A stretch of DNA of 64,000 nt, taken from contig CM120643.1 in NCBI GenBank assembly GCA_051362555.1, forward strand, positions 24,494,848 to 24,558,847, written 5' to 3'. A model generated the notes under the pieces. That model did no database searches, had not been told where the DNA came from, and was given only the letters and a program-made list of their open reading frames with translations. This document shows, piece by piece, positions 16,401-59,873 of the stretch (position 1 is the stretch's first letter; every line of letters starts with the position of its first letter). The stretch is from Lingula anatina. Taxonomy: Eukaryota; Animalia; Brachiopoda. The position numbers were made by a program, and so were the translations under genes.

Positions 16401-19400
16401 AAAATTTATAATTAATATTATTATATGTGGCTCATACAACATGTTTCTTAGAAATGCCACTGCAGTAACCTTGATTTCAACATAAAAGCAATTCCTAAAG
16501 TCATTATTGAAAAAACAACACAGTCAAACAGTTCTTTTGTATGGTTACTGTTCAATACAGACAACACAGGTCAGTCTTGGTATTGTCACTATTTAGTACA
16601 GACAACACAAGCCAGTTCTCTTCCATCCACATATGGTGGACAGGTGAGAGTACCACATTTAACCTCAGCAGTGTAAAACAGGGCACCATTTGTGCTTTTA
16701 TGACCACCAGCTACCACTTCTGGAGCTTCATCAAGGCAGACAAACTCTGTTCTGTGGTTACCGTGACTATTATGTTCTGATACCAGGTATCCATTGTACT
16801 CTGTTGTCCACCCAGCTGGACATGTCTTCTTGGCTGGTATCATCACATGACTGGGGCGTGTTTGGGTGTAGTATACAGCACAGGGGGCATCATGCTCAGC
16901 AAAATTTTGACCTCCTGTATTGGTTGTTGAAAATATGTTAGGTTTTACATTATGATATTCCACCCCATGTATGTAAGAACCTGAATCTTGCCCTCCATCT
17001 TGGTATTTCCCCCACTCTGGTGTCTGTGGTAAACACAGGTAATTACTGCCTCCTCCAGTCTGGAGATACTCAGTTCCAGAAGCTATCCCTAAAGATAAAG
17101 TTATATTATTCAGATGTTTTTTATTTTAAATTGGAAATGAAATAATTAAAACTGTAACCTTACATAATTAGTTGCTTACTTTTTTTATGCAGAGGAAGAT
17201 CAAGTATAAAATCTGAAAAAAATATAGTACAAGTACAATATACTGAATTATCCATAGTAAAACCATGTATTACCGTAACATGTATTTTACCTTTGTACAA
17301 AAGTTTTGAATGTGTTGAACAAGATGTTCTGCCCCAACGTGTAAACACTGCACCTCCATGATTGTTGATGGCCGGCAGACCTGAAAACATACATTAAACC
17401 CAGACCACCATATTGTGAACATTACCCTACTATGACTGGTATTGCTCTTAGAACAGATAACATGAAAATGTACACTTTCAAAATTGACATCAAACTTATT
17501 TTTACACACCAACCCTTGTCCCATTTATTTGTCTCTTAACTAAAACGTAACCTTTAATAAAATGGAAAAAATGAACCTGTAAATGAAGTCAGTGGACAGG
17601 AATACAGAACATATTTCCCAGATTGAAAAAAAATTAACAAAACTAAAAGGAAGATATTCATGTAGTTAAAGCACCAGACAAACCTGTAGGTGGCACCCCT
17701 ATCTGAGTTCCAATTTGTCCCAGCATTTGTTTGAGGGTATCCAATGTTAGAGATCCTGGGTCCCCTTTAGGTCCAGGTGGTCCCTTGGAAAATTGAACAA
17801 AAATATTGGGAATACTATAATTACACAAAGGAATGTATGTTAACAGGATTATAAACTGGTGATATCAATTACAGATCTGTTATCTATGAGTTGATTATTT
17901 GGAATTACATGTCAAGAACATTTTCAGAAGTATATCTCATGGAACACTTAATTTTTTTTTTATTAAATGACTGTGCATTTTCATGATATTAAAAAAATAG
18001 AAAACAGTTTAATGTTTATTTTTTGATATTTCAAGAATTGGATATCATAGTTCATAGATTGCATTATTGTCTAATTTTAAATCAAAACTAATATAAATAT
18101 TCAATCATAATTTTAAATTACAAAGCTATTGAATATATATCAGTCATGATTAGTTTTACCTGTATTCCATCTTTACCATCTCTCCCAGGTAATCCCTGTG
18201 GTCCCTGAACACTGCTCCTTGAGGAGTTGCCAACTGAAAAGTGTATATTAGTAATTTTTTTAATTTCTTTGGATAATAACTTTGTCTTTGTGGAATCAAT
18301 AAATGTATTTCATAATTACATATCAATTCTGACAGTTACCTTACCATTCACAAGACATCAGTCAACTTTGGGAAAAACCTAGCCAAGAGGTGACCTCACC
18401 CAAAATCAATAATTGTATAATACTTAGTAGTACAGGTAAATTGAAATATGAATTAACATCTCATTTTGCCTGTGAAATTTTACTGTTACTACTAATTGAT
18501 CATTCTTCATAATGTTTGTTAGATAAAATGAGAATTTTATTGATTAGAAAGTAAAGGCATCATTTGATAAGACCTTAAGTATGGGGTAACAAATGTTTTC
18601 TGCTTTAAGCTATAATAAAGAGAGCAGACCTACCATTACCTTGTAGTGGTGATTGATATCCAAGCAGTCCAATGATTTGCTTGAGGCTGTCTACTGTTAA
18701 ACCTGGGTTCTGTCGATGAATTTAAGATATTTGTGATAAAAAACAATGAAGTGTTCACATTCTGTCATTTCCCACAATGAGAACAAAAAAGGATAATGTT
18801 ACAATTAAGTCATATCTACATAAAAAAATCATGTATGGTATTCATTTGGTATTTTTCACTATCAGTTCCTACTTATTTATGTTGCATGTCCATGGCTTCA
18901 TACTCTATAAGCAACTGTTAAGTATTATATAATTATTATAATCATATACTCTGACATACGTTTTTATTCAAGAGAGAAAATTTATTCTAAAAGTCATGCA
19001 AATCGTCATAAGTGAAGATCAGTAAAGTTACCTGGATTCCATCTCTTCCATCCCTGCCATCTCTTCCTGGGGGTCCCTGGGGTCCTTGTAGACAGCCTGA
19101 ACTTACCACTAAAATATATGACACAGTGGCTTGAATTGCCTGTTTTTTAACATGATTCTTGATGCAAGTGGATACTCAACCATATGGTGTCTGTTGTCAA
19201 ATATAATATTATCCGAAATTGTATAAAATGTTAGTTCAAGACATCCAACAAATAATATAGCTTACAGTTTCCTTGCTGCACTTGTCGCTTGGTAATAAAA
19301 TGGTTTCCATGGCGAAGGTTTGTTGCATTTCGTTCAGGACCAATGATAGTTTGTGCATCAAGCTTTAACTTGATTTTCTGAATATCTGACTAATTTAAAA

Positions 19401-24764: not shown

Positions 24765-24903
24765 TTAACTATAATACTTTTTTGAAGGAGGCAAAAATTA
24801 CATATGATATATAACTGCATGGGATAGGTCATATTTAGCAAAAATTCTAATTCAACATAATTGAGTCCTAAGAAAAACTGCCAAACCATTCTTTTCATTG
24901 ACT

Positions 24904-27900
24904 CTATTTAGTACAGACAACACATGCCAGCTCTCTTCCATCCACATATGGTGGACAGGGGAGGGAACCACATTTAGCCTCAGCAATGTGGAACAAGGCA
25001 CCATTTTTGTTCTCATGGCCTCCAGCTACCACTTCTGGAGCTTCATCAAGGCAGACAAACTCTGTTCTCTGGTATTTATCATATTCTGATACCAGGTATC
25101 CATTGTACTCTGTTGTCCACCCAGCTGGACATGTCTTCTTGGCTGGTATCATCACATGACTGGGACGTGTTTGGGTGTAGCATACAGCACAGGGGGCATC
25201 ATGGTCAACAAATTTCTGATCTGTATTCGATGTTGAAAATATATTTTGATAAATAAAGTTATATTTCACACCATGTATGTAAGAACCAGTACTTTGTCCT
25301 CCATCTTGGTATCTCCCCCACTCTGGTGTCTGTGGCAAACACAGGTAATTACTGCCTCCTCCAGTTTTGGTGTAAAAGGTTCCAGCTGATATCCCTATAG
25401 GTATGAAAATTAGTTATAATATCAGTCACTTTGTCAATTATGAAAAAATATATACGTATGTACATATATACAAACACCCCTTTTATTATTATTATTATTA
25501 TATTATTATTTTAAAGCTGAATAGAACTTCACTTACCTTTGTACAAAAGCTTTGAATGTGGTGAACAAGTTGTTCTACCCCAGCGTGTGTAAACTGCCCC
25601 ACCGTGGCTGGTATTGGCTGCTAGACCTGAAAACATACATTAAATCTTGAGAACCATATATATATTGTTTAAACTGCCCCACCATGGTTGGTATTTGGTG
25701 GTAGACCTAGAAACATGAAAACATACACTAAAAATAGTCATCAAGCATTATATTGCACAGTAATCCTTTTCCCTATTGCCAGAATAATGGTGTCTAATAA
25801 AGGCACAAAAAAGGATAATTTTGGCACCAACATTCATATTTAGCGAATTATTATTGGATAAACAGCATGTTCCTTGTGTTTACCAGCCTTTAATCTTCCT
25901 TTCCTGATACACACATCTCTGTAAAAATTTTGGAAAAAGCCAAAGATCATAAGCGGACTTCGAGGTTTTTCATGTACACCATTCCTTTCATTGACTGAAC
26001 TGAACTACAATTGCAACATAAATGCAGTGCCCTTTTCAAACCGTGTCAAGACAATTAAGACCATTTAGCTGTCATTTTATGTTTTAAGGGTATGAATTTT
26101 CCTATCAGATATGTTCAACAAAAAGCAATCCATGCGCTTAGAATGTGATTTAAATCCTTTTTTGTGTGGCTTTAAGCGATAAGTAAAACTTTCATGAAAT
26201 CTAAAAATAAAGTCAGTGTCAGAGGAAAGAAGACTACATTCCCCATATAAAAAAAATAATCATCATTATTAAAAAAGAAGTGCCTGATTTAGTTATAGCA
26301 CTATACAAACCTGTAGGTGGCACTCCTATCTGAGTTCCAATTTGTCCCAGCATTTGTTTGAGGGTATCCAATGTTAGAGATCCTGGGTCCCCTTTAGGTC
26401 CAGGTGGTCCCTTAGAAAATTTGAATAAAAATATTGAAACTGCTATTTCACAAAGGAATATATATGAACAGAAGTATAAACTGGTAATATAAACTACAAA
26501 TTTGTTATCAATGAGTTGAGTATTTGAAATTACATGTCAAGATATTTTAGAGGTTTATCTCATGGAACAATTAATATTTCTTTTTAAACATGCATTTTCA
26601 TGATATTTCAAGAAGAACAAAACAGTTTAAAATAGATGCACATTTTCATGACATTTTAAGACTGAAGTGGATATCATAGTTCACAGATTGCATTATTGTC
26701 TAATTTTCAATAAAAACCCAATATGATCCAATCATGATTTTGAATTAAAAAATGAGTAACTGTATACGTATCATGCAAGTTTTACCTGTATTCCATCTCT
26801 GCCATCTTTACCATCTCTCCCAGGTATTCCCTGGGGTCCCTGAACACTGCTCCTTGAGGAGTTGACAACTGAAAAGGATATCTTAGTAAATATAAATGAA
26901 AATAATTATCATTTGCATCTGATATTTTTCTGTTTTAACACTTAGTGTTAAAACACTTAGTGATTGGCTTTGATGAGTTATATTTAAAAAATATTGTTTA
27001 AAAAGGACTGGCATCATTTTTCATCATTTTCCACCTAAAATCTATAAATATTTTAAAATGTCGACTAAACTATCATAACTTAATATATCATCTATAATAT
27101 AGAGAGCAGACCTACGATTACCTTGTAGTGGTGACTGATATCCAAGCAGTCCAATGATTTGTTTGAGACTGTCTACTGTTAAACCTAGGTTCTGTGGATT
27201 AATTTATTTGTAATAATAAAAGGTGAACATTCCTTGGGGAGTCATTTCTTACTTTGAGCATGAGGTTTATTAACATTCGAATCAAATTGCATCCACATGT
27301 ACATCAAGTCAGTATTCTATATACATATCGATCGTGTTCACTATCAACTTATTTGGGCCAAAAAACTACAGTTCAGTACATTCTCATTACTTTTATATCA
27401 AAAAGGGATTCATGTATTTTTTCACAAACAAAAATGAGTAAAGTTACCTGAATTCCATCTTTCCCATCTTTTCCATCCTTGCCGTCCCTGCCATCTTTCC
27501 CTTGGGGTCCTTGGGGTCCTTGTAGACACCCTGAAGTTACCACTAGAACATATTATACAGATATATATTAGATTTGAAGTACTTTTTTTACGTGAAGTTG
27601 CTGTTAACTGTAAGTCAACCATTGCATGTAAATATCTGTTTTCAAATATTTACCATACCCGGTACAGTTAAAGGGATAATAACTCTTTGTATGAGATCTA
27701 TATTTCACAATAAAAAACATTGTGAACAACTCATAGAAATATAATATATTCTGTTTTACCACAAAAACGGCATAAAACGGCAGTTATAGCTATTATTCTG
27801 ATATCTGAGCTTGTCTTTAGACCACGTGACCTCCATTGATGGCTATACCCTGTTATTATCTCTTAAGAGATCATAACAAAAAAAAAACTTTTTAGAAAAA

Positions 27901-29617
27901 AACCAGGGACAAACTGAATGTAAAAATGGAAAAATTGTTGTTTACTCTATGAAAATTCATTTTTTGGCCAAAACAAAGAGTTATTATCCCTTTAAGTGAT
28001 TTGTTGGCTTACAACATTGGGAATGATGATGTAAACTGTTTAACATACAGTAGAATTATCTTATAATAAAAGTAACAGTTTTTACATGTGAAATTAATGT
28101 ATCTGAAAATGTAAGGCTTTGGTGAACTCAGAAATATAAAACAATCAGAGGATAAAACTTACAGGTAAAAACTCCTAATGATATCTTTAGGAACGTATTT
28201 AATAAATGTTTGAATGTAGGATATAGAGTTTAATATATTTCTAAATTTATTATTACTAAACATGGAGCATATCTTTTTTTTTTAAATCATGTTAAGCAAT
28301 AAAATTTTGTTAAAATGGTATAAATAAGTTAATGTAGACCTGTAACAAATAATGTTACAGCTTACAGTTTCCTTGCTGCACTTGTCTCTTGGTTATAGAA
28401 TGGTTTCCATAGTGAAACTTTGTTCCATTTTGCTCAGCAACTGTGATCGTACCCATGGTCTGTCCATTGAGCTTCAACTTGATATCTGACTAATTTGAAA
28501 ACAAAGCAGAAGAATATATATTTAATCATGGACATAATGAGAGAAGGACGAGAAACCTGGAGCAAGATCAAAGGATAATCGGCTTAACGTGAGCTCTTCA
28601 TGAAACTATGTGCGTTCGGATCACGCGACCTCCCGTACAGGTAGCGAGCATATCGCAGTTGTCGATGAATTTTTGTGTCATTTGGGCAGGTAGTTCGCGA
28701 TAACATGAGTCAATCTTTCGGGTGGATGAGACAATAAAATTATAGAGATGAAGTATAAGTGCAATTTGTTCTGTCAATTTGGAAACTATGTGAGAATTTG
28801 ATATGTTTATTCCTGGAGGAATTCAAAATGCCCTATGTGGTAAAGGCAATCTTGTTTTTCTCATTATGTCCATGATTTAATTAAATGTGTTAATAGATAC
28901 GTGATTCTAAATACATGGAAATTGTAGAACATACATTTTCATTTTTCATTGACATTCAAGATAAGGTGGACAGAACTATTGGTAAAAACCACAATCATGC
29001 TGAGAGACGTAATTCAAAGCCCAAAATACCTTAAAGGGATAATAACTCTTCGTTTCGGCCAAAAAATGAATTTTCCTGGAGTAAACGACAATTTTCCCAT
29101 ACTTACCAATGGTTAATGAATCCATTTTTACATTCAAAGTTAGTCCCTGGTTTTTTTCTAAAAAGTTTGGTTTTTTGTTAAAATCTCTTAAGAGATTTTA
29201 ACAGAGTATAGCCATCAATGGAGGTCACGTGGTCTAAAGACAAGCTCAGATATCAGAATAATAGCTGTAACTGCCGTTTTTTGTGGTAAAACAGAATATA
29301 TTATATTTCTATGAGTTATTCACAATGTTTTTATTGTGAAATATAGATCTCATACGAAGAGTTATTATCCCTTTAAGTTGTTTGTTCTCCAGCCGGACTA
29401 CTGCAACCTCAGCCTCAAGTTTTTTCATCTTTTGCTCTTGTCTGTTAAGTTTTCCAACTAGTTTCTTCATCTCTAGTTGTTGTTGGTCCACTCTTTCAAC
29501 CAGTTTCATCAAAGCACCATTATTGACATCAGCATGATGTTGTAAAGTTGATGTTACTACTGTTATAACAACAGCAGATACAATTAAAGATACTAACTTG
29601 GTCATGGTGTACACCAT
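24904..29617 (-). CDS. Short-chain collagen C4-like copy B; exon 1 donor displaced by a MITE (possibly disabled)
   Basis: Exons 29373-29617 (original donor now at 29028-29029), 28366-28489, 27448-27542, 27122-27191, 26786-26868, 26311-26410, 25537-25626, 24904-25394. Downstream exons are open and phase-compatible. Confidence 0.8.
25800..26172. mobile_element. Probable old MITE
   Basis: aaaggcacaaaaaaggat ... atccttttttgtgtggcttt inverted termini; not seen in the paralogous introns. Confidence 0.45.
27672..27991. mobile_element. TTAA-targeting MITE (Kolobok-like), 320 bp
   Basis: ttaa|AGGGATAATAACTCTTTGT...ACAAAGAGTTATTATCCCT|ttaa; inverted relative to the copy at 29035. Confidence 0.85.
28524..28878. 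mobile_element. MITE in copy B intron 1
   Basis: TIR aatcatggacataatgaga / tctcattatgtccatgatt; absent from the matching intron of copy C. Confidence 0.75.
29035..29372. mobile_element. TTAA-targeting MITE (Kolobok-like), 338 bp, inserted at the end of copy B exon 1
   Basis: TIR AGGGATAATAACTCTTCGT, TTAA at 29031-29034 and 29373-29376; the empty site aaataccttaagttg is present in copies A, E and G. Confidence 0.9.
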
Positions 29618-30568: not shown

Positions 30569-33500
30569 CTATTTAGTACAGACAACACATGCTAGTTCTC
30601 TTCCATCCACATATGGTGGTCAGGTGAGGGGACCACATTTAACCTCAGCGGTGTATATCAAGGCACCATCTTTGTTCTCATGACCCCCTGATACCACTTC
30701 TGGAGCTTCATCAAGGCAGACAAATTCAGTTCTCTGGTGTGAGTCAAGAGCTGATACCAGGTATCCATTGTACTCTGTTGTCCAACCAGCTGGACATGTC
30801 TTCTTGGCTGGTATCATCACATGACTGGGACGTGTTTGGGTGTAACATACAGCACAGGGGGCATCATGATCGAGCAAATCCTGACCTCCTGCATTAGATG
30901 TTGAAAATATTTTAGTCCTAATAAGTTCATATTCCACACCATGTATGTAAGAACCAGTACCTTGCCCTCCATCTTGGTATTTCCCCCACTCTGGTGTCTG
31001 TGGCAAACACAGGTAATTGCTGCCTCCTCCAGTTTTGCTGTAGTAGGTTCCAGCAATTATCCCTGATACAAAAAGTTTTAAAGCCATTTTTAGTGAGGAA
31101 TTTAACCTGTAACTATCAGTGTCAAATTTAAAATAAAATATTAATGTACCGGTATTCAAGTATTGTATTTATTATCATGATATTATTGTTATCATCATTG
31201 TTATTATTATTTTGACTAAATGGTTTAATAGAACCATACTTAAGAAAGATGTACTTAAACACTTTACCTTTGTACAAAAGTTTTGAATGTGTCAAACAGG
31301 TTGTTCTGCCCCAGCGTGTGTAAACTGCCCCACCATGGCTGGCATTGGCTGGTAGACCTGAAAACATACATTAAAACTAGAGAACCATTGTTTAGTACAC
31401 CGTTTTACCATAGCTGGTATTGGATGAGGTATCAGGACAGTCCCCCTTCTCCTAGCTTATTCAGACAATCTCGGATCCCCTTTTCTATTTGATAAAATAA
31501 AAAAGTTACAGTTACCCGATTGCTTCTTAAGGGTATATAGTGCCAGAAAATTATGCTTATTACACTGAATGCACTTTTAAAAGGAGAATCAACACAGAGA
31601 TAGATGATCATAGATTGATCATGCTGGTGCAATAATAGTGAACATTTATTCAGAACATTCCATAACGTTAGATAACTCTTAGAGAACCTTTGCACCTATT
31701 CTGAGAAGACATTATTTTATTAATGAGTAAAATCTAAAATAAAGAGGAAACAATGAATGAATTCACTGTATATAACTGTAGAATATATATTTTCTAATTT
31801 GAAGACAAGATTGACAAAAACGTAAAGAACAATTAAAGAGCATAGCTAGGACATAAGAGTTATTAGACAAACCTGTTGTAGTTGGCATGCCAATCTGAAC
31901 TCCAATTTGCCGTAGCATTTGTTTCAGGTTGTCTAATGTTAGAGAAACTGATTCTCCTTTGGGTCCAGGTGGTCCCTTAAAAAATCCAATGTGTGAAACA
32001 TACTTAGCCTATTAGCTTCTATCTACCGGTATATTAGCAGACATCCCCTGCATATGCCATACAAACAAACTGGCAGCTTGATCAATTAACTTGGTCATTT
32101 AACTTGCCCATTATGCTGTTAACAATGCAAAGACACCATAAAGAATGGGTCCAGCCAGGGTGTAATAAACATGGGGTATGGGCTTTTTATGCATAGGACT
32201 AGATTTGATCTGTGCCTATGACATATATATTTCATGATATTTGAAGCTTTGAACAAGATACAAAGGGTAAAAAGTTATCAGTACATAAGTTACATGACTA
32301 ACTGAGTTTGAATTATTTTGGTCCCAATTTTTAACCTATATCAAATCTTAGACATGTCTCTGAATTATAAAGCTAGGGAATAACCTTGCTTTTATTACAT
32401 TAAGGAAAAGTTTTTTAATATTCTGTTCACACAGATATCAGTTAACTCATAGTATTACATGTGTAGAGGATTATGCTAATGACTTTATATCTGTTTATAA
32501 TCAACTAGTTTATGCCATAAGTATGAATCTTGTTGCTCTATCACCAAGAAGCTTTTTGTAAAATTATTTTTTTAGGATTATCATATATATATATTTGCAA
32601 AATTAACTTAGAGCGCATTCTCAACGAATTAAGCCAGGCTTTACAAAGCCGGTGACCTAAAAATGGCGGACGTACATGAAAGAAAAACCGCCTAATCTTT
32701 TAATAGTCTCTCCGCCTCCCCACACGTCGTCCCTGCGGGGTACAGTAATTAAATCTCGGCTCCGTTCGCCATGCGGAAGCTACCTGAGAAATATTAAGTG
32801 CGCATGCTCATCAGTTAAACTCGTGGTGAAGAAAGCATGGCGGCTGAAGGCGATCGAAGGAAAAAAGCTCTTCTGTTCTATTATGTTTGAAAACAGAGAC
32901 GAAAAAGGAATAATTTGGCCCGTAGAGCAGCAATGAATTGACTATCTACGGAGATAATATCACCAGAGATATTCACGGATATATTAATGTTCGGAGCCGA
33001 GATTTAATTACTGTACCCCGCAGGGACGACGTGTGGGGAGGCGTGTGAGAGGCGGAGAGACTATTTAAAGATTAGGCGGTTTTTCTTTCATGTACGTCCG
33101 CCATTTTTAGGTCACCGGCTTTGTAAAGCCTGGCTTAATTCGTTGAGAATGCGCTCTTATATATATTTGCAAAATTAACTTATATAATTGTACATATTTT
33201 TAAATAGAAAAATCAGTTTATTCTTAAATAATATGTTGTACGTAATTATTTGTAAAGTAAGTCTGGAAAATTAAGTTTTAACCTGGAATCCATCCCTGCC
33301 ATCTCTTCCTGGAGGTCCTTGGGGTCCTTGTACACAGACTGAACTCGCCACTAAAATATAGGACACATATATATGAGTTGATTTGTCCCTTAACTATTAA
33401 GCATACAATAGTAAGACCCTATACTACTCTAAAGCTAAAAGACAGCCAAAGTTACTGCTAAAATACTTCTATGGGAATAAAAAAGATTAATAAACATTTG

Positions 33501-34250
33501 AATAAACATTTGAATATATACTGTAGAAATTGGAGTTTAATTTAATGCATCTTCACATTTTTTAATGTGGAACATATTCTTTTAGTTCCTTTTTGGTCAT
33601 GTTTAGCAATAATTCCTCAGGTTATATTGTGTAAAAATGGTGTAAACAAGTCAACATAAGACCTATTACAAGTGATTTAGCTTACAGTTTCCTGGCAGCA
33701 CTTGTCTCTTGGTAATGGAATGCTTTCCATAGTGAAACTTTGCTCTGTATTTTTCAGCAGCCATGGTGGTTTGCCCATCAAGCTTCACCTTGTCTTTCTG
33801 AATATCTGACTAATTTGAAAGTGAAAGAAAGATTAATTATAGTTTTAATTGGTCTACAGATATGTGATTTTTAAGTCATGGAAATTGTAGAACTTAGATT
33901 GTTAATTATTGTGTTTGTTTTAACTATTTATTGACATTTCTGTTAATTATTGGTAAAAACCATAATCTTGTCGAGAGACAATTAAAATTCAAAGCCCAAA
34001 ATAGCTTAAGTTGTTTGTTCTCCAGTCTGACTGCAGCAACCTCAGCCTCAAGTTTTTTCATTTTTTGTTCTTGTCTGTTTAGTTTTCTAACTAGATTTTT
34101 TATCTCTAGTTCTTGCCTGTCCACTCTTTCAACCAGTTTCATCAAAGCATCATTATTGACATCAGCATGATGTTGTAAAGTTGATGTTACTACTGTTATA
34201 ACAGCAGCAGATACAATTAGAAATATTAACTTGGTCATGGTGTACACCAT
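30569..34250 (-). pseudogene. Short-chain collagen C4-like copy C, probable pseudogene with one collagen module
   Basis: Exons 34005-34250 (donor GT changed to CT), 33686-33809, 33283-33350, 31873-31975, 31268-31357, 30569-31062 with Cys TGT to TGA at 30620-30622. No exon 4/5 equivalents found. Confidence 0.8.
32611..33156. mobile_element. Young Harbinger-type MITE with ~160-bp TIRs
   Basis: tta|GAGCGCATTCTCAACGAATTAAGCCAGG ... CCTGGCTTAATTCGTTGAGAATGCGCTC|tta; arms nearly identical. Confidence 0.88.
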
Positions 34251-37973: not shown

Positions 37974-38047
<74 letters not shown>

Positions 38048-44000: not shown

Positions 44001-44098
44001 ACATCATTATTGACATCAGCATGATGTTGTAAAGTTGATGCAGAGACAGTAGCAGCAAAAAGAGCAGTGAATACATGAAAATACATGATGTGCAGCAT
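37418..44098 (-). CDS. Short-chain collagen C4-like copy E, intact 8 exons
   Basis: Exons 43892-44098, 43422-43536, 42964-43058, 42535-42604, 42063-42136, 41756-41855, 41347-41436, 37418-37911; all GT-AG and in frame. Confidence 0.9.
37979..38044. repeat. (TA)n microsatellite in copy E intron 7
   Basis: Direct reading; the paralogous tract in copy G is at ~51440-51485. Confidence 0.95.
38112..41334 (-). mobile_element. 5'-truncated, frameshifted non-LTR retrotransposon (CR1/L2 group, Crack/Daphne-like)
   Basis: Endonuclease end GASLVDYVIAD...SDHFPL; RT motifs GKAAGLD, QAGFRKG, GTRQGC.VS, LLYADD, YKYLG; C-terminal FRISNHNLQIEKGR..C..C. 3' ggcctgtaggcc..aataaa; 14-bp TSD atagcactttacct at 38098-38111 and 41335-41348. 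Confidence 0.9.
38225..38570. mobile_element. CACTA/EnSpm-type MITE nested at the LINE stop codon
   Basis: Termini CACTAGTGGGCT...AGCCCACTAGTG, ~65-bp imperfect TIRs, 3-bp TSD tca. Confidence 0.8.
43666..43835. mobile_element. Small MITE (CAGG(A/G)GCGGAT termini); homologues are embedded in both HINE copies
   Basis: caggagcggattcag...ctggatccgaccctg; interior matches ~10662-10823 and ~47647-47812. Confidence 0.65.
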
Positions 44099-47077: not shown

Positions 47078-47132
<55 letters not shown>

Positions 47133-47975: not shown

Positions 47976-48549
47976 CTATTAATCTCTCTTGACAATCAGT
48001 AGACAGTGACACATTCAATCACGAACCCCTTACTCCTCAGTTCTCCTGAATTAAACTCTTTAAAGTAGATTACGTGGGCACCACCAGGTACTTTTTACTC
48101 AAGATTTGACAGTTCATTTATCTTTTCAATTTAATATAGCTTACCGATATCGTTCCGGTGCATAGAAGCACTTCATTTTGGTCCTTTAATATCAGATAAG
48201 ATTTGCATTTTGTCCCTTTTACATTTTGCCCAAGTTCCAACTCTTTTCCAGTGTATGTCATGCAACTGAACTCTCAGAAACAGTTTTTTCAGTTCCTACA
48301 CTATTTGCACTATTCATTTCTTAGTTTATTCCTGTATTAACTTACTGTTTTCTTCAAAATTTTTATTACAAATGTTTTTCTAGATGCAAAAGATAATGTT
48401 GTTTCAGCAAGCTTTGTAATTTAGCAATTGGAAACTTAGATAGAGTATGTTATTTTTCAAATATTCAAAAATTATTCTAAAAAATATTAAAATAATAGCA
48501 AGCAACATATATAGATGTCAGTGAAAAATCACATGGCTAGAAATTTAAC

Positions 48550-50101
48550 CCTGGGAGACCATCTCTGCCATCTTGTCCATTTTTTCATCTTTTCCTGGTG
48601 GACCTTGACGGCAACAATTACTGCCAACTGAAAGTGGAATTCCCAGTTGGTTCTGTTAAGGAAGTTCTTCAAATAATCTACCACAGCATCTAGAATGCAC
48701 GGCTGATTTCATTACGCCAAAGACACCTAACAGTTGTTCGTTTATGCCCCTTTTTTAAGAAAGTATTTAGCTTGTAAGTCACACAAGCCAAGCAACTAAA
48801 CTCCTACTTCACAAAAACTGTTGGGTTAGTGGCCAGTCACAAATCAGTTGCGATGCGTCGGGGATGGGTAAAACCCGGGAAATTTGAACAAAATCTTGAG
48901 ACAGATCTCACGATTTTGCACCCGTCGGAGGCGCTCTCCGGACGCCTGCGGGTTGTCGCAGATTTTTTCTACCACACCCGTCGCGGTCCCCAACTTTGAA
49001 CTTGAATTTTAAGATTGCTCGCAAGATTTTTCACCCATTTTGGGCATCCCAGACACAATCTCCGATGACCTACGATGCCCTCTGATTAATCGGAGGCGTC
49101 CTCCGAATAATCTGAGACTAGTACAGTACAGTGTACAGAGAGAAATACAGATGACCGAGGTCAGAAAACCCTCCTTTTCCCCCACATATACCCAGGGGGA
49201 AAAAATTACAAGAAAAGACGCTCGCAGATATCGTCTCCGATCGCCTCCGATGCAATCGTAGGCGATCGGAGGCTAATCCCACGATTTTTCGACAAAACCG
49301 GGTCAAAATCCTTGAAAAAATCTCAGACAATGTGACTGCTCCACTTTTATTAGGATTATTGCTAGGATTGTTCAAGGATTCTTTATTTTCTACGACGACC
49401 CCCGGCCAAAACTAATCCCCGACAGATCGCCGACATTGTGACTGGGCCATTAGGATGCAACATCTTACGTGACCCAAAAATAAATAGTATATTCACAGTT
49501 GTGAGGTACCTGTACGTCTTTTGGTTAAGTAATGGGTTCTGTTATCACCATCATTAAAGTATTGGGAGGTAGGGTTTTCAGCGTTTGACATCAGTTCTTG
49601 CATTTTACGGTTTATATTTCCTGTATATGGGCATAAATTCAGGTATTTTTATTAATGCTGTAGGTTATGAAATATTTAAAGATATTCATAAGCATCTGTT
49701 TTCAGACTCTACTATTTCTTATTTTATAATAAAATCTTAAATCTTTTGCTATTTTCAAATTTCTTTTATTCTGCAACTAAGATATCGTCTTGATTCAGAT
49801 TTTTTATTGCAATTCAATAATAAGAATATATATTATAAGAACATTTATAGTTCTAGTTCTGTTGCCTGCTTTTTCTAGTTCTCATTTTCTGTTTTGATTG
49901 TGAAAACATCTTCCAATTTCTTCAAGTTGGAAATTTCTGCTTTAGTTGGATTATCACTAGTTGTTGCCTGTCAAGTCTCTAAACCAGTTTCATCAGTGCA
50001 TCATCACTGACTTCAACATGGTGTTGTGCATTTGGTGTCAGTGCTGTCATAACGGCAGCAGTTACAATGAGAAACATGGTCTTCACCATGGTGTATGCCA
50101 T
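48550..50101 (-). pseudogene. Short-chain collagen C4-like copy F (D-type), truncated pseudogene
   Basis: Exon 1 MAYTMVKTMFLIV... with TAG at 49979-49981 and its donor deleted; exon 2 ~49497-49630; collagen exon ~48550-48627 (GSNCCRQGPPGKD..NGQDGRDGLP). No C4-domain exons remain. Confidence 0.85.
48829..49450. mobile_element. Non-autonomous DNA transposon (Harbinger-like) in copy F intron 2
   Basis: TIR tggcc(c)agtcacaa...gtcgggga, ttag on both flanks, GC-rich; absent from the homologous copy D intron. Confidence 0.75.
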
Positions 50102-50854: not shown

Positions 50855-51425
50855 CTATTTACTACAGACAACACAGGTCAGTTCTCTTCCATCCACATAT
50901 GGTGGGCAGGGAAGGGAACCACATTTAGCCTCAACAGGATATATCAAAGCACCGTCTTTGTTCTCATGGCCACCAGCCACCACTTCTGGAGCTTCATCAA
51001 GGCAGACAAACTCTGTTCTTGCATAGTCATCACGATTTGATACCAGGTATCCATTGTACTCTGTTGTCCACCCAGCTGGACATGTCTTCTTGGCTGGTAT
51101 CATCACATGACTAGGACGTGTTTGGGTGTAGCATACTGCACAGGGGGCATCATGGTTACGAAAATTCTGACCTCCTGTATTGGATGTTGAAAATATGTTC
51201 GGGTCAATTGTCTCATATTCCATACCATGTATAAAAGGACCTAACGCTTGCCCTCCAATTTGGTATTTCCCCCACTCTGGTGTTTGTGGCAAACACAAGT
51301 AATTACTGCCTCCTCCAGTTTTGTCATAGAAGGTTCCAGCAGATATCCCTGATATAAAAAAGCATAAAAATCCATTTATTTAAAATTTTTAACTTTAACA
51401 AGCATAGATGTCAAATTTAACATTT

Positions 51426-51488
<63 letters not shown>

Positions 51489-54400
51489 CATATACGTCTT
51501 GGCCTAAAGCGCCACCTGTGAGTAGTTACAGAAGAATGAGAAAAAAAAGACACGTGTGAATTAGCGTGTTCGTCTTTATTTGACATGGTGTCAGAAGCGG
51601 GATAAGAAGTGCCGTGAAAAATCGGACTGAACTATCTCTAGGGGTACTAGAGAGAGAGAGGAAACTCAAATCCATTGACGTAATGGCTAAATTCCATCCT
51701 CCGGAGAACTTTAGGTTTCACGCGCCAAACGAATGGCCGGAATGGCGCCAACGCTTCATCAGATATAGACAGGCCACTAAACTGGACACGGAGGCCGGGG
51801 GAATACAAGTATCAGCTCTGATTTATGCTATGGGAAAGGATGCAGAACAGATATTTTCTACCTTTAAGCTATCCACAGCAGATGCTACGGCAGAAAATTC
51901 AGGTGAGCCCGAGGCAGAGAATTTTGACGTTGTTATTGCTAAGTTTGACGAGTATTTTATTCCAAGGAGGAATATTATTCATGAAAGGGCAAGATTCCGT
52001 CAACGTCGACAGATACCTGGAGAATCAGTTGAGACTTTTTATAGAAACTTAGTGGAACTTTCAGAAAATTGTGAATTCACCAACAAGGAAGAAGAGATAA
52101 GAGATGCTATTGTAATTGGAATCGCCGACAGAGATTGCTCATTAAAACTCCAATTAAAAGTCGACTTGACCCTGAAAACAGCATTAGAGATTGTTCGCAG
52201 TACGGAACTGATCAAATTACAAAACAGTACTAATCCAAGTGTTGCAAACGTGAGTGAAGTGGAGAAAGGAAATAGACAAGCCAGAGGTAAACCCAGAGGT
52301 CAAAACAGTCAACAAAGAGGTCAGCCCAGACGATGTGGACAATGTAACCATATACTAGACCACAGACATGTAACATGCCCAGCACAAAACAAAAAGTGTA
52401 ATAAATGCCATAGAATTGGACACTTTGGTGTTGTGTGTCGGAGCACTCGTACTTTTAAAAGCAGTGCTAGTAAACAAATGGGCAGTGTTCATGAAGTTAT
52501 TGCAGATGACACTGATGATGTAGAATGTTTCCTTGGATCATTGTTTACAGAGAATAGTAGTAATGATTCAGAATGGAATGTTAAATTAGACATGAATGGT
52601 CAGTCTGTAGATTTCAAAATAGATACAGGGGCAGATACCAGTGTAATTAGTAAGGCAATGTATGAAAGTCTAAAGCCAAGTCCCACACTCTCTCCCACCA
52701 CAGTAGTGTTGAATAGTCCAGGTGGAAAATTAACCAACATTGGCAAGTTTGTTGCAAAAACAAAATTTAAAGAAAAAAATGTATACATTTACTGTACATG
52801 TTGTCAGAGAGAATGTGAGTAACTTGCTTGGAAGAAGTGCTTGTGTTGACATGGGTTTAGTAACTAGAGTGTTACAGGCAGATTCAGTTGGTACACTTAA
52901 GAGTGACCCAGTACATATTAAGTTGAAAGATAGTGCAAAACCATATAGTGTTAGTGCAACCAGACGAGTCCCAATTCCATTGTTACCAAAAGTCAATGCA
53001 GAACTAGAACGTATGGAAAAGGCAGGTGTTATTGAGAAAGTAACTGAGCCGGTTGAGTGGTGTGCACCCATGGTGCCAGTTGTGAAACCTAATGGTGATG
53101 TGCGCATATGTGTAGATTTGAGGCGTTTGAATGAGTCAGTTGTGCGAGAGAAATACTTGATCCCTACTAAAGAGGAAGTACTTAGTCAGCTTGCAGGTGC
53201 ATCATGTTTTAGTAGTCTAGATGCTGCAAGTGGTTTCTATCAGTGTGAGTTGGATAGTGATAGTAGTAAACTTACTACATTTCTCTCACCGAAGGGACGG
53301 TTTTGTTTCAAAAGACTACCATTTGGGGTGACTTCAGCTCCAGAAATATTTCATCGGAAAATGTGTGAAATACTTGAGGGTCTAGATGGTGTTGTAGTGT
53401 ATCTAGATGACATTTTAGTCTTTGGCAAGAGTGTAGAGGAACATGACAAAAGACTTACTAAAGTCTTAAACAGACTGGACGAGAAGGGTCTGAAACTCAA
53501 CATGCAGAAATGTAAGTTGCGAAAATCAGAGTTGAATTTCCTTGGCCAAAATATCAGTGCGTCTGGTATTGGTATTGATAAGTCCCGAGTACAGTCAATA
53601 CAAGACTTGGAAGTACCAAGTAATGTGTCAGAGCTCAAGCGTGTCCTAGGAATGGTTAATTACCTGGGGAGTCACCTGAGTGAGCTTTCTGAGAAGCTTC
53701 ATCCCTTGAATGAACTTCTACGTTCAGATGTTCAGTGGCACTGGGGTTCCGATCAGGATAGTGCTTTTAAGGAGGTAAAACGGTTAGTTTCCTCAGCCCC
53801 AGTCCTTGCATTTTATGATCCATCCTTACCTACAGTGGTTTCAGCAGATGCCAGTAGTTATGGATTAGGTGGTGCACTCATGCAGTATCATGGTAGTGTA
53901 CTTAAGCCAGTAGCATACTGTTCGCGAACACTTTCTGAAGCCGAACGTGGTTATGCCCAAATTGAAAAAGAATGTTTAGCTGTAGTTTGGGTATCAGAGA
54001 AATTTGATCGCTATTTGCGAGGCATGGAGTATGAACTGTTCACCGATCACAAACCATTAGTTCCCTTGATCAATGTTCGTGATCTTGACAAAGTTCCCTT
54101 ACGTTGTCAGAGACTGCTAATGCGATTGATGAGGTATTCACCCAAAGCAGTGTATGTCCCTGGGAAACAGTTGTTAATAGCTGATACTTTGTCACGTGCT
54201 CCAAGATCCAGTGACACATCAGACAAAACAATGTTGACACCACAAGATATTGATGCTTATATCAATAATGTAGAGTCATGCTGGCCAGCTTCTGATGAGA
54301 AATTATCAGAGATTAGAAATGTTTCATCTGTTGATGATGAAATATCTACTGTTTATCAGTACACATTGAAAGGATGGCCCAAGTATGTAGATTCAGTAAA

Positions 54401-56986
54401 TCCAGTCGCACAGAAATTTTACAGTGCCAGAGCACATTTGTCAGTGCATGATGGATTGTTAGTTTATGATGACCGTATTGTCATACCAAGAAAAATGAGG
54501 TCAGATATGTTGGAAAGGCTTCATAGTGGTCACCAAGGTCTTACAAAGTGTAGGCAGAGAGCACAAAGTAGTATATGGTGGCCTGGTATTAGTCGAGATA
54601 TTGACAGTTTAGTCAGTAAGTGTGAACATTGTCAGATTCACAAGCCGTCAGCTCGAAAAGAACCAATGAAATCAACTCCCCTCCCCGATAGGCCATGGCA
54701 AATGTTAGGGGCAGATTTGTTGGATCACAAAGGAAAGAGTTTCTTAGTTGTGAGTGATTATTATTCGAGATACATTGAACTAGTGCATTTGTCAAGCACC
54801 ACTAATTTTGCAGTGATTGCAAAGTTGAAGAATATCTTTGCCAGGTTTGGTATACCTGAGGTGTTCATTACTGATAATGGACCACAATTTGTTTCTGAGA
54901 AATTCAGTGAGTTTTCTCAAGAGTATGGATTCACTCATACAACTTCAAGCCCGCATTACCCACAGGCTAATGGGCATGTAGAAAGGGCGGTACAAGTTTG
55001 TAAAAAGATTCTTAGTCAGTCAGATCCAATGTTAGGTTTATTAGCATATAGGTCAACTCCACATTCAGCAATTGGGTATTCACCAGCTCAATTGTTGATG
55101 GGAAGAAATCTGAGAAATACTGTTCCCTGTCTTCCAAAGATACTAGAACCGAAATGGCCTAATAGTGAACAAGTCAGGTTCAAAGACGAGTTGGCAAAGA
55201 GTTATCATCAGATACATTATAATGAAAGGCATGGGGTAGTTAGAGCTCCTGAGTTAAAGTCAGGAGATTTTGTTAGAATTAAAACTGACAAAGAAAAGCT
55301 GTGGAGTGAGGTTCCTGCTCAGGTTGTGGGAAAAGCAGATCCTCCAAGGTCATATGTGGTGAAAACGAGTGAGGGTGTAGAACTCCGTAGAAATCGGAGA
55401 CATTTAAGTGTTATGCCAGAACTAGCTGAAAAGCATGTTACCACTCCTGTACATGCTAGTAAGTCTGTTGAATGTAGTGGCAGTACAAGCAGTGAAAGTG
55501 GTATGCACGGTGTTAGCAACAACATTCACACAACTGAAAGTGCAAGTAATGTATTGCAAACAAGATCAGGTAGAATTGTAAAACCTGTTGGACGTTTAGA
55601 CTTGTAGATTTTCTGTATACTGTTTGTTACATATAAGCATGCTTAATGCAAGTGAACTTTATGAACTTTATTGAAAAAAAAAAAATGTTGATTGTATGTT
55701 AAATGTAATAGATTGATGTTTAAAGGTTTAGAGACATTTAATTCCACACTTTATTAGTTGTTATCTTTGGGGGAAGATCTCATATACGTCTTGGCCTAAA
55801 GCGCCACCTGTGAGTAGTTACAGAAGAATGAGAAAAAAAAGACACGTGTGAATTAGCGTGTTCGTCTTTATTTGACATATATATATTCAGATACATAAGA
55901 TGTCCATAAATATATAGTAATGAAACTAAAAAAGTTTTAATTTGTTATATTTATCTTATACAATTATTTGCCTAATATGTTGTGATAAGAAGGAATATGT
56001 CCAAACAAAAAAAAGCTGTTTTTGGATTGTGATATACTGAAACGTAAGTGGGATAAAGGTTTTTTTTTTTACCTTTGTACAACAGTTTGGAATGTGTTGA
56101 ACAAGTTGTTCTGCCCCAACGTGTGTAAACTGTCCCACCATGGCTGGTATTGGCTGGTAGGCCTGAAAAACATATGTAAAACCTAGAGAACCATATTGTA
56201 TACACTGTCCCACCATGGCTGGTATAAGCTGGTAGGCCTGAAAAACATATGTAAAACCCAGAGAACCATATTGTATACACTGTCCCACCATGGCTGGTAT
56301 TGGCTGGTAGGCCTGAAAAACATATGTAAAACCTAGAGAACCATATTGTATACACTGTCCCACCATGGCTGGTATAAGCTGGTAGGCCTGAAAAACATAT
56401 GTAAAACCCAGAGAACCATATTGTATACACTGTCCCACCATGGCTGGTATTAGCTGGTAGGCCTGAAAACATACATTAAGTGTAGAGAACCATATTGTAA
56501 GCACCACACTGCCACACTGTTACAGGTTTTCATCTGTTGACTTGAACCATTTTGTGAAAAAAGAATGACTGGTAATGGTTGGTAGCTTTCAATACATATC
56601 AAACTAAATGGTTCACAGTGTGATTAATTTTGTCCTTTTTATAGCTTGCTCTTAAAGAGCAAAAAAACTTCAATAAAAGGGAAAATGAAAAAGTTCTGTT
56701 CGACACAGTAGAAGCACAAGAAATGCTACACAATATACGTTTGGAATGGTTCCAAATTGTATATTCATTCACAATTTTCTCCATTGAAAAGATCTAGTCA
56801 TTACTGTTAGTTATAGGGCATTAGAATGTAAAACTCAACAAAATCTGCATGACTTTAAATATTAGAATCCAACCAAACTGAACTGCATTTCATCCCTATG
56901 AATCAATCCTACGTATGTATGAAATACAATTTTCCTTTCTTGGTGTATACTGATGGAAGTGCACAAAATAGTTTTATTATAATAAT

Positions 56987-57022
<36 letters not shown>

Positions 57023-59873
57023 CAATTTTGCTGCAGTACTATATAAATATTGTTGTGACCAAGACTGTCATAGTGAACAGACAAAACAGTCAACAGGTAA
57101 ATCAAACTATCATAAATAAAAACTTGAATATGAAAACTGAGGTCCAAATGAATGAAACCATTTTCACATATATAAATATTGACTTTAAATGGGGTCATCG
57201 CAGGGATATATTGAACCCAGAGGTGGGGTAATCGAGCGAGGCTGAAGCTTTGACTTGAGATCTCAAACACAGGCCTACCCAACTACGACTCTCTGCATCG
57301 AATGATCCTGATTTCACCAGCAGATTGGACCACACTACCCGTTTTCAAGGTGTGAATCAGTATGTGCTTCGAAAAATTAGACACAACACTGCTCTTGCCT
57401 AGTATGCGATGTGATAGTGATGATTCTCAATGGGGTTGGAAAGTAGTGCATCTTATCTGAAAATTGTGGCATGATACTGTGAAATGCGTACTGACACACA
57501 CCTTGAAAACTGGTACTGTGGTCTGATCTACCAGTGAATTTGGGATCATTTGGTGCTGAGTCTGGTGGTTGGGTAGGCCTGAAACAGTAATTATCCTTTA
57601 TGAGTCCAGAATAATAAGTCACACAGTAATATATTTATTGTGTAGGCAGTGAAAATAGTGCACATCAATCTGTACATAAAAAGGTAGATTAATTAAGTTT
57701 AAAAACCTGTAAGCTGTACCTTTCTGATCTCCAATTTGTCCCAGCATTTGTTTGAGGGTATCCAATGTTAGAGATCCTGGGTCCCCTTTAGGTCCAGGTG
57801 GTCCCTTAGAAAATTGAACAAACATATGAACTATGAGTATGAATTATTTTTATGAATTAATTATTAATTATTTATAATTTATTTTGTGATGTATTACAAT
57901 ATATTTGAAGAAGTGGAAACAAGGGGTCAATGGTCATCACTTCAAAGAATGCCTAACTGGTTGATTTTCAAACATTTTGATTTCCAATTACGTACTATCA
58001 GCACTTTAATTGTATATCTAGCAGCTAGCCATTTTACCTGTATTCCATCTCTGCCATCTTTACCATCTCTCCCAGGTAACCCCTGTGGTCCCTGAACACT
58101 GCTCCTTGAGGAGTTGCCAACTAAAAAGTATAAGTGTGATAAAAATTCAGATAGAGACCATTCCCAGACCCTATCATACTGACTGTGGATCGATCTGTCT
58201 CCAAGTGAATTCTTGCTAAATTGCAATCAGAATAAGAATGGGAACCCAGTCATACATTTCATTGGGTACTGACTAATTAGTCTTCACCATTCACATGCTG
58301 GTACTAGTCAAACAAAGGCCACAAGTGACTTCACCCATATCAATAATTTTTTATGAGTACAGGTTAATTCATATAAAAATTAACATATCATTTGCATCTA
58401 ATATTTTACTGTTACAATGTAACACTTAGTGACTGGTGATAGTTATTTAAAAAGAAAATTGTATTAAATAGGAATGGCATCATTTATCATCATTTCCACC
58501 TTACATGGCAACAAAATGTGTTTACTGCTTACATCTATAAGTATTTTAAAATATCGACTAAACTGTTATAACTTAATATATCATCTTTAATATACAGAGC
58601 AGACCTGCTACCATTACCTTGTAGTGGTGACTGATATCCAAGCAGTCCAATGATTTGCTTGAGGCTGTCTACTGTTAAACCTGGGTTCTGTGGATAAATT
58701 TAAGACATCAAATTGATTTTGTAGCGCAGAGTTGAGAAGATTTAACACTTTGTCATTTCAAACTATGAGTTTATAGGGGGTTTAACATCCAATATAAATT
58801 GCATCTACATCAAGTCAGTATTTTATGCATATTGTTCACTATCAACTTATTTATACCCCCCCCCTTAAAAAAAAAAAAACAAAAAAACTAAAGCTCAATT
58901 ATCATACTTATTTCTTATACATACCAATATGGCTATTGTTTAATTTTATATTAAGATAATATAATGCGCTGTACATCATAGGAAGAAGATTGTTTGTTTT
59001 ATTCATGTAATTTGTCATGATGAAAATTGGTAAAGTTACCTGAATTCCATCTCTCCCATCTCTGCCATCTCTTCCTGGGGGTCCCTGGGGTCCTTGCAGA
59101 CACCCTGAACTTACCACTGAAATATAGGACACAGTGGTTTGAATTGCTGGTTTTTAACATGATACAGATGCTGCAAGTTGATACTCAACCATAAAATGTC
59201 TGTTGTCAAATATAATGTTATGTAGCATCAATATACCCTGTATCCTCTTAATATATTTTATCTGAAATTGTATAAATGTCTGTTCATTATCTCTAACAAA
59301 TATTAATATAGCTTACAGTTTCCTTGCTGCACTTGTCTCTTGGTAATGGAATGGTTTCCATGCTGAAACTTTAATCTATTATTCTCTTCAGCCATGAAAG
59401 TTTGTGCATCAAGCTTCACCTTGATTTTCTGAATAACTGACTAATAAGGCAAAAGTTTAGGAAGGACATCAGTTTTTATAATATAGACAAGATATTTCAT
59501 TTTCTGTATATGAAAACTGTAAAACATAAATCCTTTTTAAAACAATAAGTTAATTACCCAGTAAATTGTTTAAGTTATTAATTAAGTTAAAAGAGACAAT
59601 TGAGAGACAGACCTAGTGAAACGTACATCCATATAATTAACTGATAATACTGGAAAAGGACAAAATTCAAAATACCTTAAGTTGTTTGTTTTCTTGCCTC
59701 ACTGCAGCAACTTCAGCATTCAGTTTTTTCATCTCTTGTTCTTGTCTGTCCAGTCTTTCAACCAGTGTCACCAAAAAGTCATTACTGACATCAGGATGAT
59801 GTTGTAAACTTGATGCAGTGACAGCAGTCACGATAAGTACATCAAATACAGAAAAATGCATGATGTGCACCAT
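50855..59873 (-). CDS. Short-chain collagen C4-like copy G
   Basis: Exons 59676-59873, 59317-59440, 59040-59116, 58618-58687, 58038-58120, 57707/57720-57804, 56073-56162 (further acceptors up to 56462), 50855-51348. The exon 6 donor is ambiguous. Confidence 0.82.
51614..52822 (+). CDS. gag: Gypsy Gag plus N-terminal part of the aspartic protease (likely ATG at 51683)
   Basis: WPEWRQRF, ERARFRQRRQ..GE, tandem knuckles C-x2-C...H...CPA...C-x2-C-x4-H-x4-C, FKIDTGAD. Confidence 0.9.
   Translation: MKNRTELSLGVLERERKLKSIDVMAKFHPPENFRFHAPNEWPEWRQRFIRYRQATKLDTEAGGIQVSALIYAMGKDAEQIFSTFKLSTADATAENSGEPEAENFDVVIAKFDEYFIPRRNIIHERARFRQRRQIPGESVETFYRNLVELSENCEFTNKEEEIRDAIVIGIADRDCSLKLQLKVDLTLKTALEIVRSTELIKLQNSTNPSVANVSEVEKGNRQARGKPRGQNSQQRGQPRRCGQCNHILDHRHVTCPAQNKKCNKCHRIGHFGVVCRSTRTFKSSASKQMGSVHEVIADDTDDVECFLGSLFTENSSNDSEWNVKLDMNGQSVDFKIDTGADTSVISKAMYESLKPSPTLSPTTVVLNSPGGKLTNIGKFVAKTKFKEKNVYIYCTCCQRECE
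52740..55607 (+). CDS. pol: Gypsy Pol (protease C-terminus, RT, RNase H, integrase)
   Basis: LLGR, RICVDLRRLN, LPFG, YLDDILV, ADASSYGLG, TDHKPL, H-x3-H...C-x2-C zinc finger, TDNGPQF, NGHVER. Confidence 0.95.
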   Translation: MASLLQKQNLKKKMYTFTVHVVRENVSNLLGRSACVDMGLVTRVLQADSVGTLKSDPVHIKLKDSAKPYSVSATRRVPIPLLPKVNAELERMEKAGVIEKVTEPVEWCAPMVPVVKPNGDVRICVDLRRLNESVVREKYLIPTKEEVLSQLAGASCFSSLDAASGFYQCELDSDSSKLTTFLSPKGRFCFKRLPFGVTSAPEIFHRKMCEILEGLDGVVVYLDDILVFGKSVEEHDKRLTKVLNRLDEKGLKLNMQKCKLRKSELNFLGQNISASGIGIDKSRVQSIQDLEVPSNVSELKRVLGMVNYLGSHLSELSEKLHPLNELLRSDVQWHWGSDQDSAFKEVKRLVSSAPVLAFYDPSLPTVVSADASSYGLGGALMQYHGSVLKPVAYCSRTLSEAERGYAQIEKECLAVVWVSEKFDRYLRGMEYELFTDHKPLVPLINVRDLDKVPLRCQRLLMRLMRYSPKAVYVPGKQLLIADTLSRAPRSSDTSDKTMLTPQDIDAYINNVESCWPASDEKLSEIRNVSSVDDEISTVYQYTLKGWPKYVDSVNPVAQKFYSARAHLSVHDGLLVYDDRIVIPRKMRSDMLERLHSGHQGLTKCRQRAQSSIWWPGISRDIDSLVSKCEHCQIHKPSARKEPMKSTPLPDRPWQMLGADLLDHKGKSFLVVSDYYSRYIELVHLSSTTNFAVIAKLKNIFARFGIPEVFITDNGPQFVSEKFSEFSQEYGFTHTTSSPHYPQANGHVERAVQVCKKILSQSDPMLGLLAYRSTPHSAIGYSPAQLLMGRNLRNTVPCLPKILEPKWPNSEQVRFKDELAKSYHQIHYNERHGVVRAPELKSGDFVRIKTDKEKLWSEVPAQVVGKADPPRSYVVKTSEGVELRRNRRHLSVMPELAEKHVTTPVHASKSVECSGSTSSESGMHGVSNNIHTTESASNVLQTRSGRIVKPVGRLDL
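56115..56500 (-). repeat. 75-bp tandem repeat x5 containing the copy G exon 7 acceptor (150-bp higher-order pattern)
   Basis: Plus-strand gcctgaaaa at 56161, 56236, 56311, 56386, 56461; tattggct/tataagct and cctaga/cccaga variants alternate. Confidence 0.93.
57270..57581. mobile_element. Old MITE-like inverted repeat with ~95-bp diverged arms in copy G intron 6
   Basis: caggcctacccaac...ttttcaaggtgtg at 57270-57365 mirrored at ~57485-57581. Confidence 0.65.

Follow-up and report, generated by a model that had tools for sequence, protein, structure and literature searches.

The window analysed here, a stretch of 64,000 nucleotides of Lingula anatina (GCA_051362555.1, CM120643.1, 24,494,848-24,558,847), encodes six head-bearing paralogues (A, B, C, D, E, and G), all on the minus strand, which were identified by motif search in six frames and by self-comparison, the copy count referring to this window. 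Their last exons lie where the original prediction had placed them, and gene models with canonical splice sites (A to E and G) give products of 324-428 aa. The copies, a relic (F) and an element inserted in B are as follows:

Copy A, 16589..20704, minus strand, 8 exons, 400 aa
Copy B, 24904..29605, minus strand, 8 exons, exon 1 cut from its donor by an insertion
TTAA element in B, 29035..29372, no strand assigned, high-copy, 338 bp, with terminal inverted repeats and a TTAA duplication
Copy C, 30569..34238, minus strand, pseudogene
Copy D, 34908..36687, minus strand, with a divergent N-terminus
Copy E, 37418..44086, minus strand, 8 exons, 410 aa, intact
Relic F, 48540..50080, minus strand, D-type exons 1-3 carrying a stop and frameshifts
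Copy G, 50855..59861, minus strand, 8 exons, 402 aa, intact

Copy A keeps an open frame despite the change of one conserved head Cys to Tyr, and the fifth of its variable patches (see below) carries a 2-residue insertion. Since the insertion parts exon 1 of copy B from its donor, this copy is probably disrupted; the 338-bp element sits at the end of exon 1 and shows an RNA read depth in the hundreds. Copy C has lost the exon-1 donor, is devoid of exons 4-5 and contains a stop 15 codons before the end. The collagen exon of copy D (about 35711-35670) is without an acceptor, and an open 324-aa frame without collagen would result if exon 2 joins exon 7. No head exon was found in relic F (about 50080-48540). 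With a pseudogene (C), an interrupted copy (B), a putatively collagen-free one (D) and a headless relic (F), the array shows birth and death of copies, as had been originally proposed, and includes intact, dying and dead members.

Various other elements were detected in the window. Copy G contains five tandem 75-bp copies of the exon-7 acceptor and exon-7 start (56122-56499), each with a splice acceptor, and a single decayed extra copy of the exon-7 start lies near 25700 in copy B. Intron 7 of G harbors a Ty3/gypsy-type LTR retrotransposon (about 51520-55880, plus strand) with matching terminal repeats and frames of 412 aa (gag-protease) and 957 aa (RT/RNase H/integrase), and intron 7 of E a decayed LINE with reverse-transcriptase remnants (about 38600-41300, minus strand). 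High-copy inverted-repeat elements located in introns (27668-28010, 29035-29372, and 32594-33173) are abundant among RNA reads. A 3.5-kb repeat with inner tandem units of 161 and 337 bp is present at 7430-10988 and 44256-47975 (about 90% identity); the second of these, between relic F and copy E, may have truncated F. On the plus strand, an FG-GAP-repeat exon (5210-5590) and an exon pair whose product has a membrane segment and a short tail of charged residues (21748-22430, joint 21859/22359 in plus-strand RNA) bear what we take to be a resemblance to ITFG1/TIP. If these exons form one gene, copy A, which is situated upstream of its last spliced exons, probably lies antisense within its intron.

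The products are organized as a hydrophobic N-terminus (putative signal peptide), a stretch that appears heptad-like by eye, the sequence TKRQ (6/6 copies), a Cys (single and ahead of the collagen in 5/6 copies), two short Gly-X-Y runs with linkers, and a head of 195 residues encoded by exons 7 and 8. TKRQ is presumably a convertase site. No membrane segment follows the hydrophobic N-terminus, and the secreted, collagen-tailed plan of the original prediction agrees with this organization as deduced from the gene models. Gly-X-Y repeats number 15-18 in two runs in A, B, E, and G and 8 in C, with none in D. The heads of B, D, E, and G have 10 cysteines and those of A and C have 9 through single lesions; eight of the 11 columns that are invariant across 148 homologues are Cys.

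Homologue searches, in which 89/394 and 620/632 candidates passed, retrieved as closest relatives Lingula anatina records denominated "short-chain collagen C4-like" (77-88% identity, best record E 4e-96), followed at 36-56% identity by proteins of amphioxus, annelid, coral, echinoderm, mollusc and sponge, including a Halichondria record (E 1e-41, 39% identity). The atlas feature score for head homology to a named family was 0.95. According to the available sections of PMC5395295, spongin short-chain collagens are extracellular matrix proteins with a short collagen region, ten head Cys (seven common to collagen IV and three of their own) and no HSQ motif; definitions were also taken from PMC6527180, PMC4878091, PMC12749355, PMC12373286, and 10.1101/2021.10.08.463732. 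The HSQ motif is absent from the Lingula heads, the position aligned to the second collagen IV HSQ being HVM, and the HSQ string of copy D occurs at a non-equivalent place. In its sequence features the array is thus one of genes related to spongin short-chain collagens, in agreement with the family originally assigned. Pfam returned no family on the heads, C4 included. ApeC obtained an atlas feature score of 0.79, which is a lead only, and did not appear in the 25 families listed, out of 89 in Pfam, for the 148 homologues. The mussel homologues P0004-P0006 and P0054 are long and their scores are far above their identity, suggesting tandem heads; one is fused to a carboxylesterase model.

A scaffold and six short patches can be distinguished in the heads, with a mean identity between copies of 0.91 and 0.32, respectively. 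Among the 195 aligned head codons 122 are protein-invariant, 89 of these being codon-identical, and the exon-8 scaffold shows a pairwise difference of 0.10 at four-fold sites. The near-invariance of the scaffold and each of the patch strings listed in the original prediction were reproduced from the window copies. In copy E the patches are located at:

Patch 1, 37880..37897, minus strand, in the loop that follows the second strand in head repeat I
Patch 2, 37805..37810, minus strand
Patch 3, 37760..37777, minus strand, two codons with a posterior of 1.0 for omega >1
Patch 4, 37718..37729, minus strand, two codons with a posterior of 0.98-0.99, outside the predicted subunit interface
Patch 5, 37583..37600, minus strand, at the hairpin tip of head repeat II, the internal-repeat equivalent of patch 1
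Patch 6, 37496..37507, minus strand, the weakest, represented by 5 variants among 15 heads and without variability in the other animals

Clustering is evident for the 22 columns of exon 8 that show at least three residues (20 close pairs vs. 8.4 permuted, p 2e-4), and Thr, Tyr, Asn, and Asp abound among the patch residues. As the patches had been defined on the six window copies, an out-of-sample test was performed on nine RefSeq Lingula heads, obtained from 13 close records after exclusion of a headless record, a partial one and two duplicate heads; none is identical to any window head. At least three residues were found in 16/28 patch columns vs. 4/135 scaffold columns of these heads.

Divergence between copies amounts to 0.28-0.38 in introns 2-5 and 0.35-0.51 in the flanks of exons 7-8, to 0.10-0.17 at scaffold silent sites, and to just 0.02-0.06 in exons 4-6; the scaffold is younger than the introns. 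Copies B and D share a tract of about 130 bases (codons 101-145, 0.8% difference, p 5e-4) that crosses patch 5, which is identical in both, and C and D have codons 60-75 in common (p 0.0015), both p values being uncorrected for 15 pairs. The nearest-neighbor copy switches along the exon, and the PHI recombination test on the six window copies was not significant (p 0.15-0.66). In the 15 heads formed by the 6 window and 9 RefSeq Lingula sequences, patches 1, 3, 4, and 5 are represented by 12, 10, 12, and 11 variants that are seldom common together and occur in new combinations in the other heads, with the reservation that the RefSeq mosaics may in part be assembly or gene-model chimeras; heads with the same patch 1 had the same patch 5 in 1/4 pairs and the same patch 3 in 0/4. 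The simplest reading of these sequences would be a homogenized frame carrying older patch variants. The near-invariant third codon positions pointed out in the original prediction were indeed seen, but they reflect this homogenized scaffold, and gene conversion, absent from that prediction, becomes central to the evolution of the array.

The participation of positive selection was evaluated with our own codon models on six DNA sequences only, at least one of which (C) is dead. M2a was preferred over M1a (LRT 33.0, p 7e-8) with 6.4% of codons at omega 6.5; the 12 columns with a posterior >0.5 were all within patches, 11 of them listed patch columns, as expected by construction of the patches. 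M8 vs. M8a gave p 5e-9 and, in the recombination-aware form that had been suggested for this array, with seven segment-specific trees, p 3e-6, and the site-model signal persisted when pseudogene C was left out (p 2e-5) and when multi-base changes were included (p 0.002). By counting, dN was 0.59 and dS 0.84 in patches (ratio 0.70) and 0.04 and 0.17 in the scaffold. A partition model estimated a 3.6-4.4x silent and a 3.3-3.9x replacement rate in patches, both relative to the silent rate of the scaffold, which did not differ from each other (p 0.7) and correspond to a local omega of about 0.9. Diversifying selection, as originally proposed, is therefore upheld for a small codon class at omega about 6, but not for the patches as a whole, where dN/dS is not >1.

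A different explanation, somewhat unlikely in our view, is that the array represents a neutral mosaic of a structural matrix protein, whose tolerant loops drift like introns and carry mismatches that hinder the conversion that homogenizes the scaffold. The local omega and the raised silent divergence would both be expected in that case: same-residue codon pairs of 2-3-fold codons differ silently in 32/92 cases (35%) in patches vs. 45/759 (5.9%) in the scaffold, although the pairs are not independent, and the patches have diverged about as far as the most diverged introns, an outcome expected under neutrality. When silent rates vary per codon, a model lacking selection outperforms M2a (lnL -1859.9 vs. 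-1867.3) and is the best per parameter, and adding selection to it yielded p 0.12. The decay of several copies and the description of the family as extracellular matrix (in the sections available of PMC5395295) are also consistent with neutrality. The raised silent variation did not extend into the patch flanks (p 0.23). Targeted base-biased mutagenesis was discarded, as all six change types occur in patches and the transition share (0.44 vs. 0.65) is that which saturation would give.

Simulations (40 per model, evaluated on the 28 most variable columns) argue against this explanation in its plain form, given that the replacement rate of these columns (3.28) exceeds the 95th percentile of the neutral model (2.05) and plain neutrality is rejected. 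Their silent rate (1.67) is above the 95th percentile for pure selection (1.64) and below the 5th percentile for pure silent-rate variation (1.91), which places the data between these two models; positive selection on the patches is only partly shown. Moreover, the tract common to B and D crosses patch 5, so mismatches are no absolute barrier to conversion.

The tolerance of the loops was also examined at the family level. Patches are more variable family-wide (entropy 2.68 vs. 1.75, with a 1.8-fold rate over 84 distant heads), as drift of tolerant loops would predict. In a crude simulation with family rates, however, 26% of the differences fell in patch columns (99th percentile 34%) vs. 55% in six RefSeq heads. 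In the 15 Lingula heads the 24 family-fast columns outside patches stay uniform (0.12 difference), while the 9 inside patches differ (0.70), supporting that the patches would not be just the tolerant sites of the family. Five other groups, including Paramuricea, Acropora, and Branchiostoma, provided six-member sets of matching divergence, in which alleles, paralogues and species may be mixed. The top 28 columns overlapped the Lingula patches in 5/5 groups (9.5-16.9/28 vs. about 4.8 by chance), chiefly in patches 1, 5, 3, and 4 and not in 6. This overlap indicates that, on present alignments, loop variability is family-wide, and Lingula is not exceptional in the concentration of differences, since 28 columns take up a share of 0.66 of them, compared with 0.59-0.68 in the other groups.

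The AlphaFold model of one RefSeq head is all-beta (pLDDT 92) and matches only collagen IV NC1, weakly (Foldseek E 2.6e-4; against NC1 chains Z 6.4-7.0, rmsd 5.6-6.1, about 160 aligned, TM-score 0.27); profile and single-sequence searches of solved structures with the head gave chance matches only. A trimer of three head copies was predicted with a score of 0.95 (best control 0.01, pLDDT 90, contacts agreeing at least 95% between runs), which is in line with the oligomer of the original prediction. The mark used for trimers was reached by 21/30 solved pairs and 0/23 single chains of microbes and by 7/16 in animals, and this model may have reached it owing to its likeness to collagen IV NC1. 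The heads resemble collagen IV NC1 in the two internal repeats and in the predicted trimer, NC1 being also the sole fold family matched, at the weak scores given above. Collagen IV, on the other hand, has >100 Gly-X-Y repeats and an HSQ-bearing NC1 (in the available text of 10.1101/2021.10.08.463732), unlike the Lingula products with 15-18 repeats, no HSQ and no Pfam C4 match. In the predicted trimer, residues adjacent to patch 1 in one chain are in contact with those that flank patch 5 in the neighboring chain; the two patches occupy corresponding hairpin tips in the internal repeats. The variable loops, originally proposed as ligand-contact sites, could be mapped on this model and are neither enriched nor depleted at its interface (17/28 vs. 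83/135, p 1.0); contact with a ligand is something that we infer.

This geometry is relevant to the possibility, which we regard as unlikely, that the patches are an assembly or self-recognition code, setting the choice of chains within a trimer or the head-to-head pairing of trimers in a secreted matrix or glue, in a way comparable to collagen IV. Patches 1, 3, 5, and 6 are predicted to touch neighboring chains; collagen IV assembles its chains through a hairpin and variable region 3, and its residues E40, R76, and D78 are at or near the trimer-trimer face (PMC4878091, in the sections available). Patch 5 aligns to collagen IV alpha1 residues 35-40, although weakly (segment score -1.6 bits), the mapping between patches and collagen IV residues depending on one weak alignment. 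Family members are, in addition, raised in the pedal disc of an anemone (available text of PMC6626399), as a role in glue would suggest. Such a code should hold partner patches together, whereas heads sharing patch 1 seldom share patch 5 and never patch 3 in the four pairs compared. Patch 4 lies outside the predicted interface, where patch enrichment is nil, and no sign of a conserved network code of the collagen IV type was observed in the Lingula heads.

Eight RNA-seq runs, with reads lacking tissue labels, were mapped at the family level. In stranded libraries the reads derive from the minus strand and their joints agree with the gene models, including 19108/19266 and 17782/19031 in copy A and the exon 7/8 joint 35402/35526 in copy D, and one joint skips exons 4-5. 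At 80% likeness to exon 8 of copy E, 95, 8, 144, and 429 records were counted among 12.4, 8.4, 10.7, and 11.5 million, most of them <95% alike. In 24 of the 40 listed rows of read differences (of 156) the difference fell in patches, which make up 17% of the exon, and the patch-5 insertion of A type was present in RNA reads. The family is transcribed and spliced, at modest and variable levels. RNA reads at 17058 and 31055 also carry variants of patch 1 that none of the six window copies has.

Reports on other animals, in the parts of the sources that were available, describe members of the family in diverse contexts. In mussel, one belongs to the top gill-specific transcripts, together with C1q-domain proteins, apextrin and fucolectin (PMC4581086), and 3/4 spongin-like genes of a sea anemone are mostly expressed in neuroglandular cells and do not follow the fibrillar collagens (PMC12549020). 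Others were associated with adhesive or shell tissue (PMC6626399; PMC12040131) or with a matrix or adhesion context (10.1101/2025.07.05.662347), and in PMC13093298 the family appears in a table only. In the text and text supplements of two Lingula genome papers (PMC4595640; PMC13425148) neither the family nor five of its accessions are named, and further tables of these papers could bear on membership of the shell matrix. The literature search found no account of hypervariable patches or of selection in this family; the founding 2006 paper and a Lingula immune survey may discuss variability or immunity.

Gamete and self/non-self recognition systems also keep old variants. The high variation between window and RefSeq heads and the further variants in RNA reads would agree with recognition between individuals as the driver of patch diversity. 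This is nonetheless highly improbable here, as there are many tandem copies rather than one polymorphic locus, and variation at these loops extends to groups of unlike reproduction, corals and amphioxus among them.

The explanation that we tentatively favor, as a little short of an even prospect, is a variety of binding surfaces maintained by selection and aimed at foreign targets as candidate ligands. In this model, tandem short-chain collagen genes would encode predicted secreted trimers, produced with a signal peptide and processed ahead of the collagen at the conserved basic site. The head scaffold likely stays uniform through gene conversion, and in a few short patches of the head older variants are likely retained and recombined under selection; two of these patches (1 and 5) would meet across neighboring chains of a predicted three-chain head. 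The outcome would be diverse surfaces for binding, whose most likely targets are foreign ones, such as microbes or glycans, met at the surfaces of the body. The elements of this model that we infer are selection for diversity, a defense role, mixed trimers and external ligands. A more ambitious version, which appears rather unlikely, considers spongin-type short-chain collagens as overlooked ancient variable defense collagens, in which every trimer would display a composite surface made of short patches, and the exchange of patch cassettes between tandem copies, conversion and mixed trimers would generate a combinatorial repertoire against microbes or glycans from corals to amphioxus.

Defense collagens such as collectins, ficolins and C1q, considered here with the C1q-domain and fibrinogen-related proteins of invertebrates, have a signal peptide, a Cys, a short collagen stalk, a linker and a trimeric head, and have undergone tandem expansion. 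The Lingula products are similar in being of secreted type, with a Cys and collagen stalk, a predicted trimeric head and tandem copies, and RefSeq names some Lingula copies collectin-12 and scavenger receptor; nevertheless, their head belongs to none of the C-type lectin, fibrinogen and C1q domain types, given the absence of Pfam matches and a fold that matches NC1. Homogenized frames with islands of old, exchanged variation are known from MHC, plant RPP8 and fish B30.2 genes, from which the Lingula array differs in encoding a predicted secreted, collagen-tailed trimer and in being known here from sequence. With the spongin short-chain collagens it shares the short Gly-X-Y region, the NC1-derived head with ten Cys, the lack of HSQ and 39% identity to a sponge record. 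The conversion-homogenized scaffold, the old reshuffled patches, the codon class at omega about 6 and the collagen-free copy were not found described for that family.

Members of the family are found widely among invertebrates, the moulting animals excepted; it is classed as matrix, and its function has almost never been tested. The array is that of an ordinary family with a real, unusual and testable pattern, and offers proteins that are nearly identical outside six short patches and are open to direct comparison or patch swapping. If the heads constitute a selected and reshuffled binding repertoire, they would represent a new recognition module for invertebrate immunity or surface biology, in which the collagen IV head fold has been put to target binding. 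The pattern suggests that this supposedly structural family likely serves as varied secreted binding proteins, possibly for defense.
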